Source of the DNA: a virus
Lineage: Duplodnaviria > Caudoviricetes
Direction: 5' to 3' (one strand)
IMG/VR virus record: IMGVR_UViG_3300014838_000023
Location: 1-57,281 of that record
DNA: 57,281 nucleotides
The translations under genes were made by a program, and so were the position numbers. Below are positions 42,621-48,044 of this stretch, in pieces. The notes under the pieces were generated by a model, which worked only from the letters and a program-made list of their open reading frames with translations, ran no database searches and was not told where the DNA came from. Each line of letters opens with the position of its first letter. Position 1 is the stretch's first letter.

Positions 42621-43232
42621 ATGAGCGAACACGCCAAGCTATCGCCAAGCTCCAGCAAGGGATGGCTGAAGTGCGCCGGCCGAATCGCTCTTGAGTCCGC
42701 GTTCCCCGACTCGTACAGCGCCGCTTCCGACAAGGGCACGGCCATCCACCTGGTCAGCAAACTGGTGCTGACCGAGCCGGTCGAGTGGCCAGCCGCGATC
42801 CGTGCCATCGGCACCAACGTGCCGGTGCACAGCCCCGGCGAGCTAACGCGCGTGGTCTGGTTCACGCAGGACATGGCCGAGATGGCCCAGGACTACGTCG
42901 ACACGATCAAGGCGCTGAGCAAGGGCCACATCGTGCTCATCGAGCACCGGGTCGACTTCAGCGAGTTCGTGGGCGTGCCCAACAGCTTCGGTACGGCCGA
43001 CTGCATCATCCTGATCGCTCTGCCCGACGGCGGCTACGAGCTTTTCATCATCGACCTGAAGACGGGCTGGATCCGTGTATTCGTCGAGAACAACACGCAA
43101 GGCATGCTGTACGCGCTGGGCGCCATTGCCGAGCTGGGAATCAGCTACGACATCCGCCGCGTGCGCATCGGCATCTTCCAAAAAGAGCACGGCGGCTTGA
43201 GCGAGTGGGTCATTCCGGTTGGAGATATGTGA
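42621..43232 (+). CDS. DUF2800 (Cas4-like PD-(D/E)xK nuclease), N-terminal part
   Basis: HAKLSPSS..W..C, GTAIH, FGTAD...IDLKTG, QGMLYALG. Confidence 0.85.
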   Translation: MSEHAKLSPSSSKGWLKCAGRIALESAFPDSYSAASDKGTAIHLVSKLVLTEPVEWPAAIRAIGTNVPVHSPGELTRVVWFTQDMAEMAQDYVDTIKALSKGHIVLIEHRVDFSEFVGVPNSFGTADCIILIALPDGGYELFIIDLKTGWIRVFVENNTQGMLYALGAIAELGISYDIRRVRIGIFQKEHGGLSEWVIPVGDM

Positions 43233-43705
43233 TGAGCGAACGATGGGATCGACATTTTCTAGGGCTTGCTCTGTATCACTCGAAACTGAGCAAGGACCCA
43301 TCTACCCAAGTCGGCTCGGTGATCGTCGGTCCTGACCGCGAGATTCTGTCGGCAGGATTCAACGGCTTCCCGCGAGGAATCGCCGATACGCAAGAGCGTC
43401 TCAACAACCGTGATGTGAAGCTGAAACTTGTCGTGCACGCTGAGATGAATGCATTGCTCGCTGCGGCACGAACAGGAATGCGGCTCAAGGGGTGCTCGTT
43501 GTATCTGGCCGCCACTGACGAGTCGGGAATGGTCTGGGGTGGCCCTCCGTGCACACGCTGCACCGTGGAGATCATCCAGGTCGGCATCGGCGAGATCGTC
43601 AGTTTTCCAATGAAAACCGCACCATCCAGATGGCACGAAGACCTTGCGTTGGCACGCAAGTTGATCGACGAAGCCGGGATCATGTACCGGGAAATTCAAC
43701 CGTGA
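43232..43705 (+). CDS. dCMP deaminase
   Basis: SKDPSTQVG, GFNGFPRG, HAEMNA, PCTRC. Confidence 0.9.
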   Translation: MSERWDRHFLGLALYHSKLSKDPSTQVGSVIVGPDREILSAGFNGFPRGIADTQERLNNRDVKLKLVVHAEMNALLAAARTGMRLKGCSLYLAATDESGMVWGGPPCTRCTVEIIQVGIGEIVSFPMKTAPSRWHEDLALARKLIDEAGIMYREIQP

Positions 43706-44421
43706 CCGAATTCAAGACCCTTGCCGAGTTCGCGGCCTACGCCAAGGACCGCGCAAAGAAAGTCGAAGCCGCGATCGAGTATCACGGCAAGATGGAGCAA
43801 GCGACTTGGGAGAAGGTCTACCTCCACCCCAATCCGAATGAGGAAGACTGTCGATTCTGCAAGGCCATGGCCACGTGTCCGGCGATGGCCAAGAAGGTCC
43901 AGGAAACCATCGGCGCGTCGTTCGACGTGGTCGTCGAGCAGGGCATCCCGGTCGAGGCCATCGTCCAGGAAATGACACCGGACACGCTGGCCACGCGGAT
44001 GTCTGCCACCGGCCTGCTCGAGGACTACATCCGCTCCATCCGCGCCGAGACCGAGCGCCGGCTGCTCGCGAACATCCCCGTCGCCGGCTGGGGCCTCGAG
44101 TTGGGCCGCGAAGGCCCGCGCAAGTGGACCGATCCGGTGAAGGCCGAAGAGCACCTCCGCAAGAATTTCCGGCTCACGGTCGAGCAGTGCTACGACATGT
44201 CCGTCATCAGCCCGACGTCGGCCGAAAAGCTCCTGAAGACCCCGGCCAAGAACGGCAAGGCGATGCTCTTGAGCAAGCGCCAGTGGACCAAGCTGCAGGA
44301 GATCATCGTGCGCAACCCGGCGGTGCCGTCTGTCAAGCCGGCGTCCGCGATCAAGACACCCTACACCCCCGGCGATCGGACACCGGTCGACGACTTCGAA
44401 GCTGTTCCGGAGGACACATGA
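43702..44421 (+). CDS. DUF2800 nuclease, C-terminal part
   Basis: CRFCKAMATC Fe-S ligand cluster, GWGLELGREGPRKW, SPTSAEK. GTG start overlaps the deaminase stop. Confidence 0.8.
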   Translation: MTEFKTLAEFAAYAKDRAKKVEAAIEYHGKMEQATWEKVYLHPNPNEEDCRFCKAMATCPAMAKKVQETIGASFDVVVEQGIPVEAIVQEMTPDTLATRMSATGLLEDYIRSIRAETERRLLANIPVAGWGLELGREGPRKWTDPVKAEEHLRKNFRLTVEQCYDMSVISPTSAEKLLKTPAKNGKAMLLSKRQWTKLQEIIVRNPAVPSVKPASAIKTPYTPGDRTPVDDFEAVPEDT

Positions 44422-44891
44422 GCGAGTTCACCGAGCGGGTCAGTCTTGCTTGGCGCATCCTTCGCGGCCGTGATGGTGGCATCGCTGCCCATGCCAAGCG
44501 AGAACTGGCCTACGACAAGGACGCGCTTGCGATGGTCCTGGATGTCGTGCGAACCTTCGCCACACAAGGCCATAGCGGCGGCAGCGCCCCGATCACGATC
44601 AATATGATTGGCGCCATCCTATCGTTCAAACCGATCGGCCCGCTCCTGGGCACGGACAACGAATGGGTGGACGTTGCCGAAGTATCAGGTAGGGTGCTCT
44701 GGCAGAACAAGCGTTGCAGCCGAGTCTTCAGGGAAGGCGACGGGCAGGCCTACGACATCGACGGGATTGTCTGGAAGGAAACCGACCTTGACGGCGCAGT
44801 CACGACCTTCACGAATCATGAGAGTCGCGTGCCAGTGACATTTCCCTACTACCCAACCACGGAGTACCGGGACGCACCGGTATCAGCATGA
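44418..44891 (+). CDS. Conserved phage protein
   Basis: HAKREL...FATQGHSGGSA...PL.G.D.EW...QNKRCSRVF...VTFPY. Confidence 0.65.
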   Translation: MSEFTERVSLAWRILRGRDGGIAAHAKRELAYDKDALAMVLDVVRTFATQGHSGGSAPITINMIGAILSFKPIGPLLGTDNEWVDVAEVSGRVLWQNKRCSRVFREGDGQAYDIDGIVWKETDLDGAVTTFTNHESRVPVTFPYYPTTEYRDAPVSA

Positions 44892-45722: not shown

Positions 45723-46090
45723 CACCTGTGGCCGCGGTCGGATGGCCGGTCTGGCTTCATCGCTACGTCCAGATCGCCTCTTTCACAGGCTGCGCGGTAC
45801 CTATGAATGGCACCGTGCTGTGAAAACCGTCGTGGTCGACTTCGACGCACTGCACGCCAACCCCGTGCACCGCGCCTTGAGGTTGATCAAGCTCCTGCGC
45901 GATGAGGGCATCCCCGCGTTCGGAGCTATCGCGCTCGAGGGGGTAGAGGCCGGCGTGCTGTCGATCACCGCTGCCGACCTGGCCACTGGCAAGGTCACGT
46001 ACAGCTGGGCCGAAAGCTGAATGTAAAGTACACCACAACAACTACAACAACAGCTAGAGTCACGGCTCGTCGCGCACTGTGGTGCGTACA

Positions 46091-46163
46091 TGCAAATTAG
46101 CTCATCTGGTAGAGCATAGGTCTCATACACCTTTGGTAGCTGGTTCGATTCCAGTATTCGCAA
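46091..46163 (+). tRNA. tRNA with CAT anticodon (elongator Met or Ile2), no encoded CCA
   Basis: Acceptor TGCAAAT/ATTCGCA (1 mismatch), D arm GCTC/GAGC, loop CTCATAC, T arm GCTGG-TTCGATT-CCAGT. Confidence 0.75.
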
Positions 46164-46233
46164 CGGCCCTTAAAAAAGGTCTCGCACTATCGAATTCGCG
46201 ACGAACTGAACAAGGAGAAGTCCAACAAGTTTC

Positions 46234-46354
46234 GTGACAACTGATCGGCTTACATGCACTGTTAATGCGGAAGTTGTGGGTTCGAATCCCATCGACCCTC
46301 TCGGGGGACGTAGGTCAACTGGTAGACCGCCTAGAAAGCCGATCGACTCGTCAC
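46234..46354 (+). ncRNA. YrlA/Y-RNA-like circularly permuted tRNA mimic with Asn(GUU) anticodon loop
   Basis: Terminal stems GTGAC/GTCAC and GATCGGCTT/AAGCCGATC enclose an anticodon hairpin GCA-CTGTTAA-TGC, a T arm, a loop-closed acceptor stem and then a D arm. Confidence 0.75.
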
Positions 46355-46361
46355 ACTAAAT

Positions 46362-46437
46362 TGCGGGGTAGATCAGTTGGTAGATCGCCGGGTTCATACC
46401 CCGGAGGTCGTGGGTTCAAGTCCCACCCCCGCTTCCA
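46362..46437 (+). tRNA. Initiator tRNA-fMet(CAT) with CCA end
   Basis: Unpaired 1:72, A11-U24, three G-C pairs at the bottom of the anticodon stem (CCGGG-TTCATAC-CCCGG), T loop TTCAAGT, CCA. Confidence 0.9.
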
Positions 46438-46438
46438 G

Positions 46439-46572
46439 GTTCGCCGTCACTTTGAGAGGTTTCATGCTTCTGGTGCACGAGGTGGCTGGGTTCGATTCCC
46501 AGCTCGGGGCCCCACCGGCTCCGGTAGCTCAGCGGGAGAGCGCGTAAAAAGCCACTCGAGACTTACGGCAAC
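46439..46572 (+). ncRNA. YrlA/Y-RNA-like circularly permuted tRNA mimic with Gln(CUG) anticodon loop
   Basis: Terminal stems GCCGT/ACGGC and TTGAGAGGTTT/AAGCCACTCGA enclose TGC-TTCTGGT-GCA, T arm GCTGGG-TTCGATT-CCCAGC, an acceptor stem closed by a CCA-containing loop, and D arm GCTC-AGCGGGA-GAGC. Confidence 0.75.
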
Positions 46573-46604
46573 AGTTTTTCTCACTCAGCACGGAGGTGCT
46601 TACC

Positions 46605-48044
46605 ATGGAACGAGGTCTCACCAAGAACGCAGTCATCAGCGAACTCACCCGCAGCCCGCACGGTGATCTCGCGCAGTACCTTCCCGTCGGCCTGAAGGCC
46701 GCCGCGGAGGACCCGAACTTCTTCGCCCACCTCGTTGCCTGGAACCAGGCCAAAGGCGCGATCCGCGACGCCAAGGTGGCACTCCCGGTCATCGCGCTGA
46801 CGGCTACTGGCGACGACGTCGAGCTGCGCGACAACGCGCTGGCGCACGTCGTGTCGCTCGATCCGCGCAACCTCGTGCGGGCCGTGCGCTTCGCCAAGGG
46901 CCAGAAGGGCGTCAAGCAGCGCCAGCTGTACCGCACGGTCGAGCGCTATCTGCGCGAGCGTGAGGAGTCGCCAGGCCGATTCGAGCGCGCCGCGCTGCAG
47001 CACAAGGCTTCGATGAAGGAGCTCTATGCGCTCCTGCACATCAAGCCGGGTGCCGGCGCGCAGAAGATCCTCTTCGAAGGCGCCAAGATGGGAGTCTTCG
47101 CGGACGTGGCCAACATGAAGTTCATGGCACCCGACGAGATCGCCGGCACGATCATGCGCCGCAAGATCCCGTTCCTGGTCGCCATGGGTGCCCTGGGCGC
47201 CAAGGCGAAGGATCCGGCCGTCGTGCAGGCGTTGATCGGTGCAATGTCGCCGACCGAACTGGTCACGAACTCGAAGATGCTCGAGCGCCTGGGCGTGAAG
47301 AACACCCCGTCGCTGCGCGCCGCGTACGAGGCCGGCCTGCAGAAGGTCGCCACGTCGAAGGTGTCCACGCTGAAGACGACGCGCGCTGCGGAAGCCATCG
47401 GTGGGAAGACCGCCGAGAAGCTGAAGGGCGTGCAGGAAAAGCAACTGGACAACCAGGCAGTGGAAGGTGACTGGGCCATCCTCGCCGACAAGTCCGGCTC
47501 GATGCAGCACGCGATCGAGGCGGCTCGCCAGGTGGCGGCCATCCTGGCGCGGGTTGCGGCTGGCAAGACGCATCTCGTGTTCTTCAACTCGGCGCCGACG
47601 TACTACGACGTGACGGGCATGGCGCTGGACAAGATCATGGAGATCACCAAGCGCGAAATCGCGTCCGGCGGCACGTGCATCGGCTGCAGCCTCGACTACC
47701 TGCTGAAGAAGAAGATCGAGGTCGACGGCATCGCGGTCGTGTCGGACGGCGGTGAGAACCAGCCGCCGGCATTCCGCGAGGTGCACGCGTCGTACACGGA
47801 GAAGTTCGGCAAGGAGGTGCCGGTCTACTACTACAAGCTCAAGGGCGACAGCAACGACACGTTCCTGCCGAACTGCGAGAGGAACGGCCTGGCGCTGAAC
47901 ACGTTCGACCTGACCAAGGGGGTCGATTTCTACAGCCTGCCGAACCTGGTCCAGACGATGCGCACCAACCGCTACTCGCTGGTCGACGAGATCATGAGCG
48001 TGCCGCTCCTGAGGCTCGAGGATGTTTTCAAGCTCGCGGCCTAG
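46605..48044 (+). CDS. Ro60/Rsr-like TROVE-vWA RNA-binding protein
   Basis: Basic helical N-terminal region (DPNFFAHL...IRDAK, MSPTELVTN...LERLG) and C-terminal vWA MIDAS (DKSGSM, GGT, VVSDGGEN). GGAGG RBS. Adjacent to Y-like RNAs. Confidence 0.75.
   Translation: MERGLTKNAVISELTRSPHGDLAQYLPVGLKAAAEDPNFFAHLVAWNQAKGAIRDAKVALPVIALTATGDDVELRDNALAHVVSLDPRNLVRAVRFAKGQKGVKQRQLYRTVERYLREREESPGRFERAALQHKASMKELYALLHIKPGAGAQKILFEGAKMGVFADVANMKFMAPDEIAGTIMRRKIPFLVAMGALGAKAKDPAVVQALIGAMSPTELVTNSKMLERLGVKNTPSLRAAYEAGLQKVATSKVSTLKTTRAAEAIGGKTAEKLKGVQEKQLDNQAVEGDWAILADKSGSMQHAIEAARQVAAILARVAAGKTHLVFFNSAPTYYDVTGMALDKIMEITKREIASGGTCIGCSLDYLLKKKIEVDGIAVVSDGGENQPPAFREVHASYTEKFGKEVPVYYYKLKGDSNDTFLPNCERNGLALNTFDLTKGVDFYSLPNLVQTMRTNRYSLVDEIMSVPLLRLEDVFKLAA

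Follow-up and report, generated by a model that had tools for sequence, protein, structure and literature searches.

In a virus genome of 57,281 bp (G+C content 62%; IMG/VR record IMGVR_UViG_3300014838_000023, Duplodnaviria; Caudoviricetes), which was analysed over the complete record and is called the window below, two elements upstream of a gene for a Ro60-like protein were found to be Y RNAs that contain a whole circularly permuted tRNA with an intact anticodon arm. Element 1 (46234-46354) carries the anticodon GUU (Asn) and element 2 (46443-46569) the anticodon CUG (Gln); both lie on the + strand. Y RNAs with a whole permuted tRNA and a selectable anticodon proved to be common to dozens of related phages and, as far as the accessible literature goes, were not previously described among Y RNAs. 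These RNAs may be tRNA mimics that take no part in translation and that Ro60 presents as bait to proteins which read anticodons, probably for counter-defence; we favour this explanation tentatively, at a strength that stops a little short of probable.

Architecture of the two elements

Both elements fold into a stem P1, an internal loop and a stem P2, together called the handle here, followed by a three-way junction that carries the full tRNA body. In the order of the RNA and in tRNA numbering, the 5' strand of the handle is followed by a linker, positions 29-31, the anticodon loop, positions 39-43, the variable loop and the T arm, and then by positions 66-72, a closing loop, positions 1-7, U8-A9, the D arm, positions 26 and 27-28, a second linker and the 3' strand of the handle.

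Element 1 was delimited with the Rfam YrlA model, the covariance model R1 described below and structure evaluation. Its P1 is formed by 46234-46238 with 46350-46354 and its P2 by 46242-46250 with 46337-46345, and the linker ACAU occupies 46252-46255. The 5'-proximal part of the anticodon arm (46256-46270, + strand) consists of GCA (29-31), the loop CUGUUAA (46259-46265, with the anticodon at 46261-46263), UGC (39-41) and GG (42-43). G46256-C-A46258 pair with U46266-G-C46268, and C46330-C46331 (27-28), located directly after the D arm and G26, pair with G46269-G46270 (42-43). After a 5-nt variable loop, the tRNA body (46276-46331, + strand) comprises the T arm (46276-46292), the acceptor hairpin (46293-46310), which is closed by the loop CUCG and has one A-A mismatch, U8-A9, the D arm (46313-46328), G26 and C27-C28, all in tRNA register.

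Element 2, delimited by the same three means, has P1 at 46443-46447 with 46565-46569 and P2 at 46451-46462 with 46549-46560, the latter with one A-A mismatch. The 5'-proximal part of its anticodon arm (46465-46479, + strand) reads UGC, UUCUGGU, GCA and C42-G43; U46465-G-C46467 pair with G46475-C-A46477 around the loop with the anticodon at 46470-46472, and C46543-G46544 (27-28) pair with C46478-G46479 (42-43). The tRNA body (46485-46544, + strand) consists of the T arm (46485-46503) with a T stem of 6 bp, the acceptor hairpin (46504-46524), the D arm (46527-46541), G26 and C27-G28. The acceptor loop CCCACCG contains C73-CCA (46511-46514, with CCA at 46512-46514), followed by CCG. In the region 46485-46524, C73 may additionally pair with the base that precedes position 1, which would give the acceptor hairpin 8 stacked pairs.

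Because the anticodon arm, a 3-bp hairpin with a 7-nt loop, draws on the two bases downstream of the D arm for its remaining 2 bp, the break in the tRNA lies between positions 28 and 29. There are no bases between positions 41 and 42, which allows the hairpin to stack on the 2-bp helix 27-28:42-43. Such stacking could give a normal 5-bp anticodon arm that is nicked at 28/29, where the handle enters. The pairing exceeds what chance would give: five random pairs would all be standard with a probability of approximately 0.007, and the strand bias and the covariation described below point the same way.

An earlier note, made by a model from the letters of this DNA, had proposed that CC plus GCA pairs with TGCGG around CU-GUU-AA in element 1 and that CG plus TGC pairs with GCACG around UU-CUG-GU in element 2. 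Every one of these pairings was found where the note had placed it, as were the common break at 28/29, the N-CCA inside the acceptor loop of element 2 and the shared flanks, which are GGCUUACA...UAGAAAGCC in element 1 and GGUUUCA...UAAAAAGCC in element 2. The note had also expected a complete cloverleaf on rejoining. When the cargos were circularised in silico, ARAGORN called tRNA-Asn(gtt) for element 1 and tRNA-Gln(ctg) for element 2; this program is permissive on trimmed circular cargos, and its calls were used for the class and the anticodon, not for the exact position of the break. The recognition of the elements as YrlA-like permuted tRNA mimics with intact anticodon arms was correct.

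Covariation in homologous elements

Homologous loci were fetched by means of the Ro60-like protein, not by means of the RNA; they comprised 79 viral, 3 metagenome-assembled genome and 80 metagenome loci. They were searched with a purpose-made structural scanner for a T arm, a closed 7-bp acceptor stem, a D arm, both 27-28:42-43 pairs, three hairpin pairs and a 7-nt loop. Over all fetched loci together, 50 matches were found on the strand of the Ro60 gene (+) versus 1 on the opposite strand (-). The scanner also picked up plain tandem tRNA pairs; when these and duplicates had been removed, 34 distinct split-arm elements, termed class A, remained in 32 loci.

The covariance model R1 was built from nine class-A elements. 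It gave 183 matches in the first 84 sources and 87 in 71 further sources; of these, 182 and all 87, respectively, lay on the strand of the Ro60 gene (+), mostly upstream of that gene. Elements 1 and 2 scored 90.1 and 100.1 bits, respectively.

Base pairs were counted on the 21 best R1 matches. This alignment was fitted to the model and leans towards it, and for this reason slid and shuffled controls and RNAalifold are quoted as well. The proportion of paired cells was 97.0%, compared with 66.0% in shuffles and 33-42% with slid partners. Changes on both sides were found in 22 of 26 pairs, and not one of 500 shuffles reached any of these measures. All three hairpin pairs covaried. Pair 42:28 occurred as CG (10), AU (4), GC (4) and UA (1), whereas pair 43:27 was invariant G:C. 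On the same alignment, RNAalifold independently returned P1, P2, the hairpin, the T arm and the D arm. MAFFT alignments (A2, A3 and A4) were rejected; they showed the hairpin in two registers and a misaligned acceptor stem, and they were replaced by the R1-fitted alignments. The earlier note had made its proposal depend on covariation across the split stem and on loops related to real anticodon loops; covariation was found in the homologues, and the loops, described below, are real anticodon loops.

P1 and P2 also covaried, and a CGACU, CGAAU or CGAUU motif was conserved on the 3' strand of the handle. This internal-loop motif may correspond to the CGAA-type Ro60 site. Two loci, L002 and L003, kept the loop CUUUUAA while their T and acceptor stems differed by compensatory changes. 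In a further locus, two adjacent class-A cassettes (L015:702-836 and L015:837-976) agree in P1, T arm and hairpin stem but have the loops CUUGGGG and AUUUUAA; this looks like a duplication followed by a change of anticodon.

Authenticity of the anticodon loops

The loops of class-A elements are authentic anticodon loops. U33 was present in 31 of the 34 elements and a purine at position 37 in all 34. Positions 36 and 37 were coupled as well: G36 was followed by G37 in 14 of 15 elements and U36 by A37 in 12 of 12. For most class-A anticodons, the heptamer was identical to that of an ordinary tRNA of the same set of loci (for example, CUUCUAA, UUUGGGA, CUUUUAA and CUGAUAA).

The most common anticodons were Pro UGG and Gln UUG (five each), Lys UUU (four), Arg UCU and Ser UGA (three each) and Thr UGU (two), and twelve others occurred once each. 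This spectrum differed from that of ordinary tRNAs. U34 was found in 25 of 34 class-A elements versus 65 of 154 ordinary tRNAs (p 0.001), and the anticodons CCA, CAU and CUU, which accounted for 42 of 154 ordinary tRNAs, were absent from the 34 class-A elements (p 1e-4).

It might be supposed that the hairpin is a mere structural brace of the three-way junction that was inherited from a tRNA ancestor and whose loop is not read. Some relatives do have a GNRA-capped hairpin or a 6-nt loop at the site of the anticodon hairpin (L058:318, L027:1080, L143/L112), and the motif UACAYG, which is conserved whatever the cargo, overlaps the hairpin stem. However, a brace would need neither U33, nor a purine at position 37, nor the coupling of positions 36 and 37, nor the heptamers of working tRNAs, nor an anticodon that changes on a uniform body, and this explanation is accordingly considered quite unlikely. 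Three cassettes (L058:318-460, L027:1080-1223 and L033:974-1117) consist of a permuted tRNA body with a GNRA-capped hairpin instead of the anticodon loop; in the one from L058, the dinucleotide that follows the D arm seems to be paired with bases before the hairpin rather than after it.

The Ro60-like protein and its locus

The array is ordered as tRNA-Met (46091-46164), element 1, tRNA-Met (46362-46437), element 2 and an open reading frame (ORF) at 46605-48044 on the + strand, which encodes a protein of 479 aa. The distance from the end of element 2 to this ORF is 36 nt, and both elements are thus adjacent to, and upstream of, a gene with a TROVE plus VWA organisation. In the AlphaFold2 model of the protein (pLDDT 84.9), a helical-repeat ring is followed by a VWA domain. 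A Foldseek search of the PDB with this model returned Ro60/TROVE entries (Thermus phage phiLo, human, Xenopus and D. radiodurans) as all of the top 12 matches listed, of which the best was 9kop (E 2.5e-11, TM 0.63). According to its predicted structure, the protein has a Ro60 fold, and on the basis of these structural matches the locus is considered a Ro60 locus.

Identity to the phiLo Ro60 structure in the structural alignment was 15-16%. In a Pfam search of the ORF, the TROVE family was not matched and VWA was matched only below the threshold, and a PDB sequence search with it gave no match; the ORF matched phrog_850, annotated as 'RNA-binding protein'. Among 8000 candidates scored, 933 relatives were found at an E value of 1e-5 or better, nearly all of them on metagenome contigs, and a collection of cultured phages yielded a single distant record.

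The array is flanked by a gene for a single-stranded DNA-binding protein (Pfam match Enc34_ssDNA-bd) and a DNA polymerase gene. The second tRNA-Met(CAU) (46362-46437, + strand), located between the two elements, is an ordinary tRNA outside any cassette according to the tRNA calls and the R1 search. Upstream of the array, at a distance of 1.7 kb, the ORF 43875-44891 has a strong Pfam match to Tad3, a type I Thoeris inhibitor (E 3.1e-30), which is in keeping with the proposed counter-defence role, and an ORF similar to cytidine/dCMP deaminases is located at 42785-43705. The stretch containing the locus was found in peat and permafrost metagenome runs.

The cassette and its cargos

R1 also revealed that the handle encloses RNAs of other kinds, which the earlier note had no means of seeing. 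Among 197 full-length matches, 170 distinct cargos were found, the classes of which were assigned automatically from feature order and ARAGORN and are rough. Besides the class-A elements, there were ordinary unpermuted tRNAs with the acceptor end extended by the handle, tRNAs with the break in the variable region, others with the break in the D loop, and cargos in which D, anticodon and T arms are followed by a small GNRA hairpin. According to these assignments, the breaks in the cassette tRNAs fall at 28/29, within the variable region, within the D loop or near position 7/8. The T arm was absent in 30 cargos; six of these (L032:620, L135:553, L033:1376, L029:1364, L165:90 and L013:1353) consist of hardly more than an anticodon-like hairpin with a U33/R37 loop, which favours a mimic. 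The tRNAs or permuted tRNAs of four cassettes (L026:172-309, L036:356-504, L094:1169 and L055:3917-4053) have UCA or UUA as their anticodon and would read stop codons, a hint of suppressor tRNAs or recoding in some related phages.

The start of the cargo is nearly constant. An ACA- or UCA-type triplet was found within the first 9 nt in 167 of the 170 distinct cargos, and, with this triplet as anchor, the first bases read U-A-C-A-Y-G, each position being shared by 161-167 of 167 cargos of every kind. The 3' linker is A-rich. In the window, UACAYG is located at 46251-46256 (element 1) and 46460-46466 (element 2). The pentad UACAU is the recognition sequence of MazF/EndoA-type toxins of Firmicutes.

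The window itself contains a cassette with an unpermuted tRNA. Cassette 1 (46069-46202, + strand), defined by R1, tRNA calls and pairings in the sequence, encloses the tRNA-Met(CAU) at 46091-46164. Its P1 is formed by 46069-46074 with 46197-46202 and its P2 by 46080-46086 with 46183-46189, and the loop UCGAAUU is at 46190-46196. Its UACA (46087-46090) directly precedes the +1 position of the tRNA-Met. The R1 match to this cassette (46061-46207) scored 32 bits with an E value of 2e-6.

This diversity of cargos bears on the role of the 28/29 forms. The cassette could serve phage tRNA biogenesis, storage or quality control as a general-purpose Ro60 handle; the 28/29 forms would then be by-products of recombination between tandem tRNA cassettes, tolerated because Ro60 needs only the stem, and the anticodon would have no role of its own. 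The number of distinct cargos, which include ordinary tRNAs and several break positions, is in line with this explanation, the plain tandem tRNA pairs caught by the scanner show how such junctions can arise, and a decayed cassette copy (L003:2100-2190) has kept the handle and a hairpin with a 7-nt loop (UUUUGGC) and lost the T arm. Nevertheless, conservation of the split arm and its 7-nt loop, with covariation, extends over 34 distinct elements, U33, R37 and the coupling of positions 36 and 37 are maintained, the anticodon spectrum is unlike that of ordinary tRNAs, and L002 and L003 retain CUUUUAA amid compensatory changes in the T and acceptor stems. We therefore assign a low probability to the by-product explanation.

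Another general possibility, which we regard as distinctly improbable, is that in this phage lineage the Ro60-binding cassette is a universal tRNA socket, the permuted cargos of which mature into charged and used tRNAs, either in two pieces tethered to Ro60 or ligated. If it held, this would be a permuted or split tRNA pathway of the bacterial world that is independent of splicing endonuclease.

Mimic or working tRNA

In the explanation that we tentatively favour, the stem of P1, internal loop and P2 would serve as the Ro60 handle, with the conserved ACUG and CGACUY-type motifs in its internal loop. The near-invariant UACAYG marks the end of P2, and the three-way junction located there carries the complete permuted tRNA body. 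Because this body is complete and has a real anticodon loop, the RNA resembles a specific tRNA (Asn GUU, Gln CUG) to proteins that read shape and anticodon. With its acceptor end closed, the RNA as made would be unable to enter translation. Presumably bound to Ro60, it could act as bait that binds or absorbs readers of the anticodon loop, most plausibly host tRNA-cleaving defence or toxin nucleases, and it may also deliver the captured proteins to Ro60 and to the host exonuclease recruited by Ro60 RNPs.

The principal alternative, which we consider unlikely, is that the elements are genuine tRNA genes of a permuted or split kind. Their acceptor loop would be opened by RNase P together with trimming of the 3' end and addition of CCA. 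What results would be a tRNA of two pieces joined through the Y stem or, if the RNA is also cut and ligated at 28/29, a normal tRNA-Asn and tRNA-Gln that serve phage translation. The earlier note had posed the decoy and the true permuted tRNA as the two possibilities; these were the appropriate ones, and the evidence leans towards the mimic or decoy without deciding the question.

The acceptor end was compared between class-A elements and ordinary tRNAs. The acceptor loop was 5 nt or shorter in 13 of the 34 elements, including element 1, and six of these 13 loops were GNRA or UUCG, so that the acceptor is sealed by a tetraloop. N-CCA was present in 7 of the 34 elements, including element 2, versus a 3' CCA in 115 of 163 ordinary tRNAs of the same loci, according to a crude check. 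Thus, CCA has been lost relative to ordinary tRNAs, which does not favour true tRNA genes.

A discriminator C is non-cognate for both Asn and Gln, and a long variable arm is expected for Ser. C73 was found in both elements of the window, the three class-A elements with the Ser anticodon UGA had variable loops of 3-5 nt without a long variable arm, and the 1-72 pair of class-A elements was mostly G-C regardless of the anticodon. By the identity rules as generally known, the identity elements (discriminator, 1-72 pair and Ser variable arm) therefore do not fit the anticodon. Identity of the bodies averaged 66.5% between class-A elements with different anticodons and 63.7% between ordinary tRNAs with the same anticodon, and this uniformity of the class-A bodies favours a mimic; the effect of sharing an anticodon was 0.03 for class-A elements versus 0.04 for ordinary tRNAs, which does not separate the two groups.

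The junction, too, offers little to a maturation pathway by cutting and ligation. On inspection, no bulge-helix-bulge (3-4-3 motif) was found there; the linkers face each other at the three-way junction, and their length varies from 2 to 7 nt on the 5' side and from approximately 3 to 7 nt on the 3' side. In a six-frame search of the complete phage genome for two ligase families, neither RtcB nor RNA_ligase was matched. Contigs from four RNA libraries (metatranscriptome runs) covered 45950-46097, 46091-46258, 46163-46213 and 46453-46603; they are no proof of transcription or of RNA ends, DNA carry-over is possible, and the parts that they do not cover are uninformative. One of them begins exactly at 46091, the 5' end of the first tRNA-Met, and extends to 46258. 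No joined 28/29 form was seen in these contigs, which speaks weakly against true tRNAs, as contigs cannot reveal rare forms. A close variant of element 2 in an RNA-library contig had the same anticodon arm, a change of U-G to C-G in the acceptor stem and one C less in the C-CCA run; this loss of a C likewise speaks against true tRNAs.

Several observations weigh against the bait explanation, and most of them are to the credit of true tRNAs. N-CCA followed by a spacer, as in the 3' end of a pre-tRNA, is present in the seven elements mentioned above, element 2 among them, whereas chance would account for approximately 3% (p 6e-5). The same cassette carries ordinary tRNAs, including those with suppressor-type anticodons, which presumably work in translation, and the start of the cargo always directly after UACA(YG) coincides with the 5' end of the enclosed tRNA-Met. 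None of the 34 class-A anticodons was duplicated by an ordinary tRNA of the same locus, which is what a complementary tRNA set would show; this is a weak indication of low power, as few duplicates are expected by chance. The related cassettes broken in the variable region, some of them with suppressor-type anticodons, also favour true tRNAs, and so do the ARAGORN calls after circularisation and the authentic anticodon loops. A protruding helix is tolerated in the variable region of class II tRNAs, and breaks at that site would be sterically harmless. The GNRA-capped hairpins and 6-nt loops of some relatives are a further difficulty for the bait.

Folding of the single sequences also counts against it. 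The cloverleaf was returned for neither element (z -0.82 and -1.42); for element 1, its energy was -37.1 kcal/mol versus a minimum of -42.6 kcal/mol (5.5 above), and for element 2 it was -42.4 versus -53.1 kcal/mol (10.7 above). It is for this reason that the structure was based on the homologues.

Published work is cited here and below from the parts of the texts that were accessible. For YrlA of M. smegmatis, opening by RNase P and addition of CCA were described (Chen et al. 2014, as relayed in Wang et al. 2018, 10.1101/312249). This precedent supports true tRNAs, and a closed loop in the RNA as made is therefore no proof of closure in vivo. On the other hand, a bacterial splicing-type endonuclease is unreported according to the accessible text of the latter paper.

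Relation to known systems

The Rfam YrlA model (RF02553) aligned both elements from end to end with 34.2 and 28 bits, which is below the gathering score of 69, and the relatives scored 25-46 bits. Relative to this model, the anticodon hairpin of element 1 is a 15-nt insertion. As in YrlA, the elements lie beside a Ro60 homologue, their long 5'/3' stem is interrupted by an internal loop, the conserved motif of which may be equivalent, and the permuted order of T arm, closed acceptor stem and D arm is the same. They differ in that the equivalent of the canonical anticodon stem is the 5'/3' stem in YrlA, while in the elements only 2 bp are formed from the two strands; in that they carry an inserted hairpin with a true 7-nt anticodon loop; and in that UACAYG replaces the YrlA consensus CUA. 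A canonical phage YrlA was sought in Mycobacterium phage Myrna, where only partial matches at tandem-tRNA junctions were found.

The two-piece tmRNA from permuted ssrA is also the product of a bacterial permuted tRNA-like gene and works as two paired pieces; it has neither an anticodon arm nor a Ro60 handle, and its role is ribosome rescue.

YrlA is described as a mimic like a permuted tRNA, and further processing of some YrlAs was raised without evidence (PMC4201824, 10.1101/312249). It was stated to lack an anticodon loop (Wang et al. 2018, 10.1101/312249), and in the accessible text of Chen et al. 2014 (PMC4201824) Yrn1 of D. radiodurans is the only RNA for which an anticodon-like arm is mentioned, and the loop of that arm has 6 nt. 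A literature search found neither Y RNAs with complete anticodon arms nor permuted tRNAs of phages in the texts available, and the supplement of Chen et al. 2014, with more than 250 YrlAs including those of phages, could hold an example.

In Cyanidioschyzon merolae and an archaeon, permuted tRNA genes likewise have the 3' half first, an acceptor closed by a loop and ends that pair near the break (Wang et al. 2018), and the several break positions of the related cassettes add to this likeness. However, their transcripts are cut at a bulge-helix-bulge by a splicing endonuclease and ligated into a circle, whereas the elements have no such motif and their paired ends are the conserved Ro60-type stem.

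Phage tRNAs are known as counter-measures to tRNA-cleaving defences (PMC10264068, PMC11464382, PMC11555353). These, too, are phage RNAs with host-like or variant anticodon loops that are set against nucleases targeting the anticodon. They are ordinary, chargeable tRNAs that replace the cleaved ones, in contrast to the elements, which are closed, permuted and placed on a Ro60 handle.

Two phage Ro60 proteins are close parallels. That of Thermus phage phiLo binds two Y-like RNAs (Yrl1 and Yrl2) and the host PNPase (PMC12135203); as in the window, the Y-like RNAs are encoded upstream of a phage Ro60, and they have a CGAA-type bulge, but no tRNA-like or anticodon module was found for Yrl1/2 in the accessible text. 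In phage Bas63, the Ro60-like gp130 is located beside tRNA genes, as is the protein described here, and counters the Ppl defence system, which makes it a case of a counter-defence phenotype; the authors of this PhageMaP preprint guessed that some of the Bas63 'tRNAs' are Y RNAs (10.1101/2024.10.10.617714).

Architectures with a circularly permuted tRNA, hitherto known from algae and one archaeon, are common in a large group of uncultivated phages. Y RNA mimicry, which was thought to be limited to the upper half and elbow of tRNA, extends here to a specific and changeable anticodon. This implies partners that read the anticodon loop and offers a concrete route to finding what the tRNA-like module of Y RNAs binds, and it ties phage Ro60 to current work on tRNA-targeting immunity.

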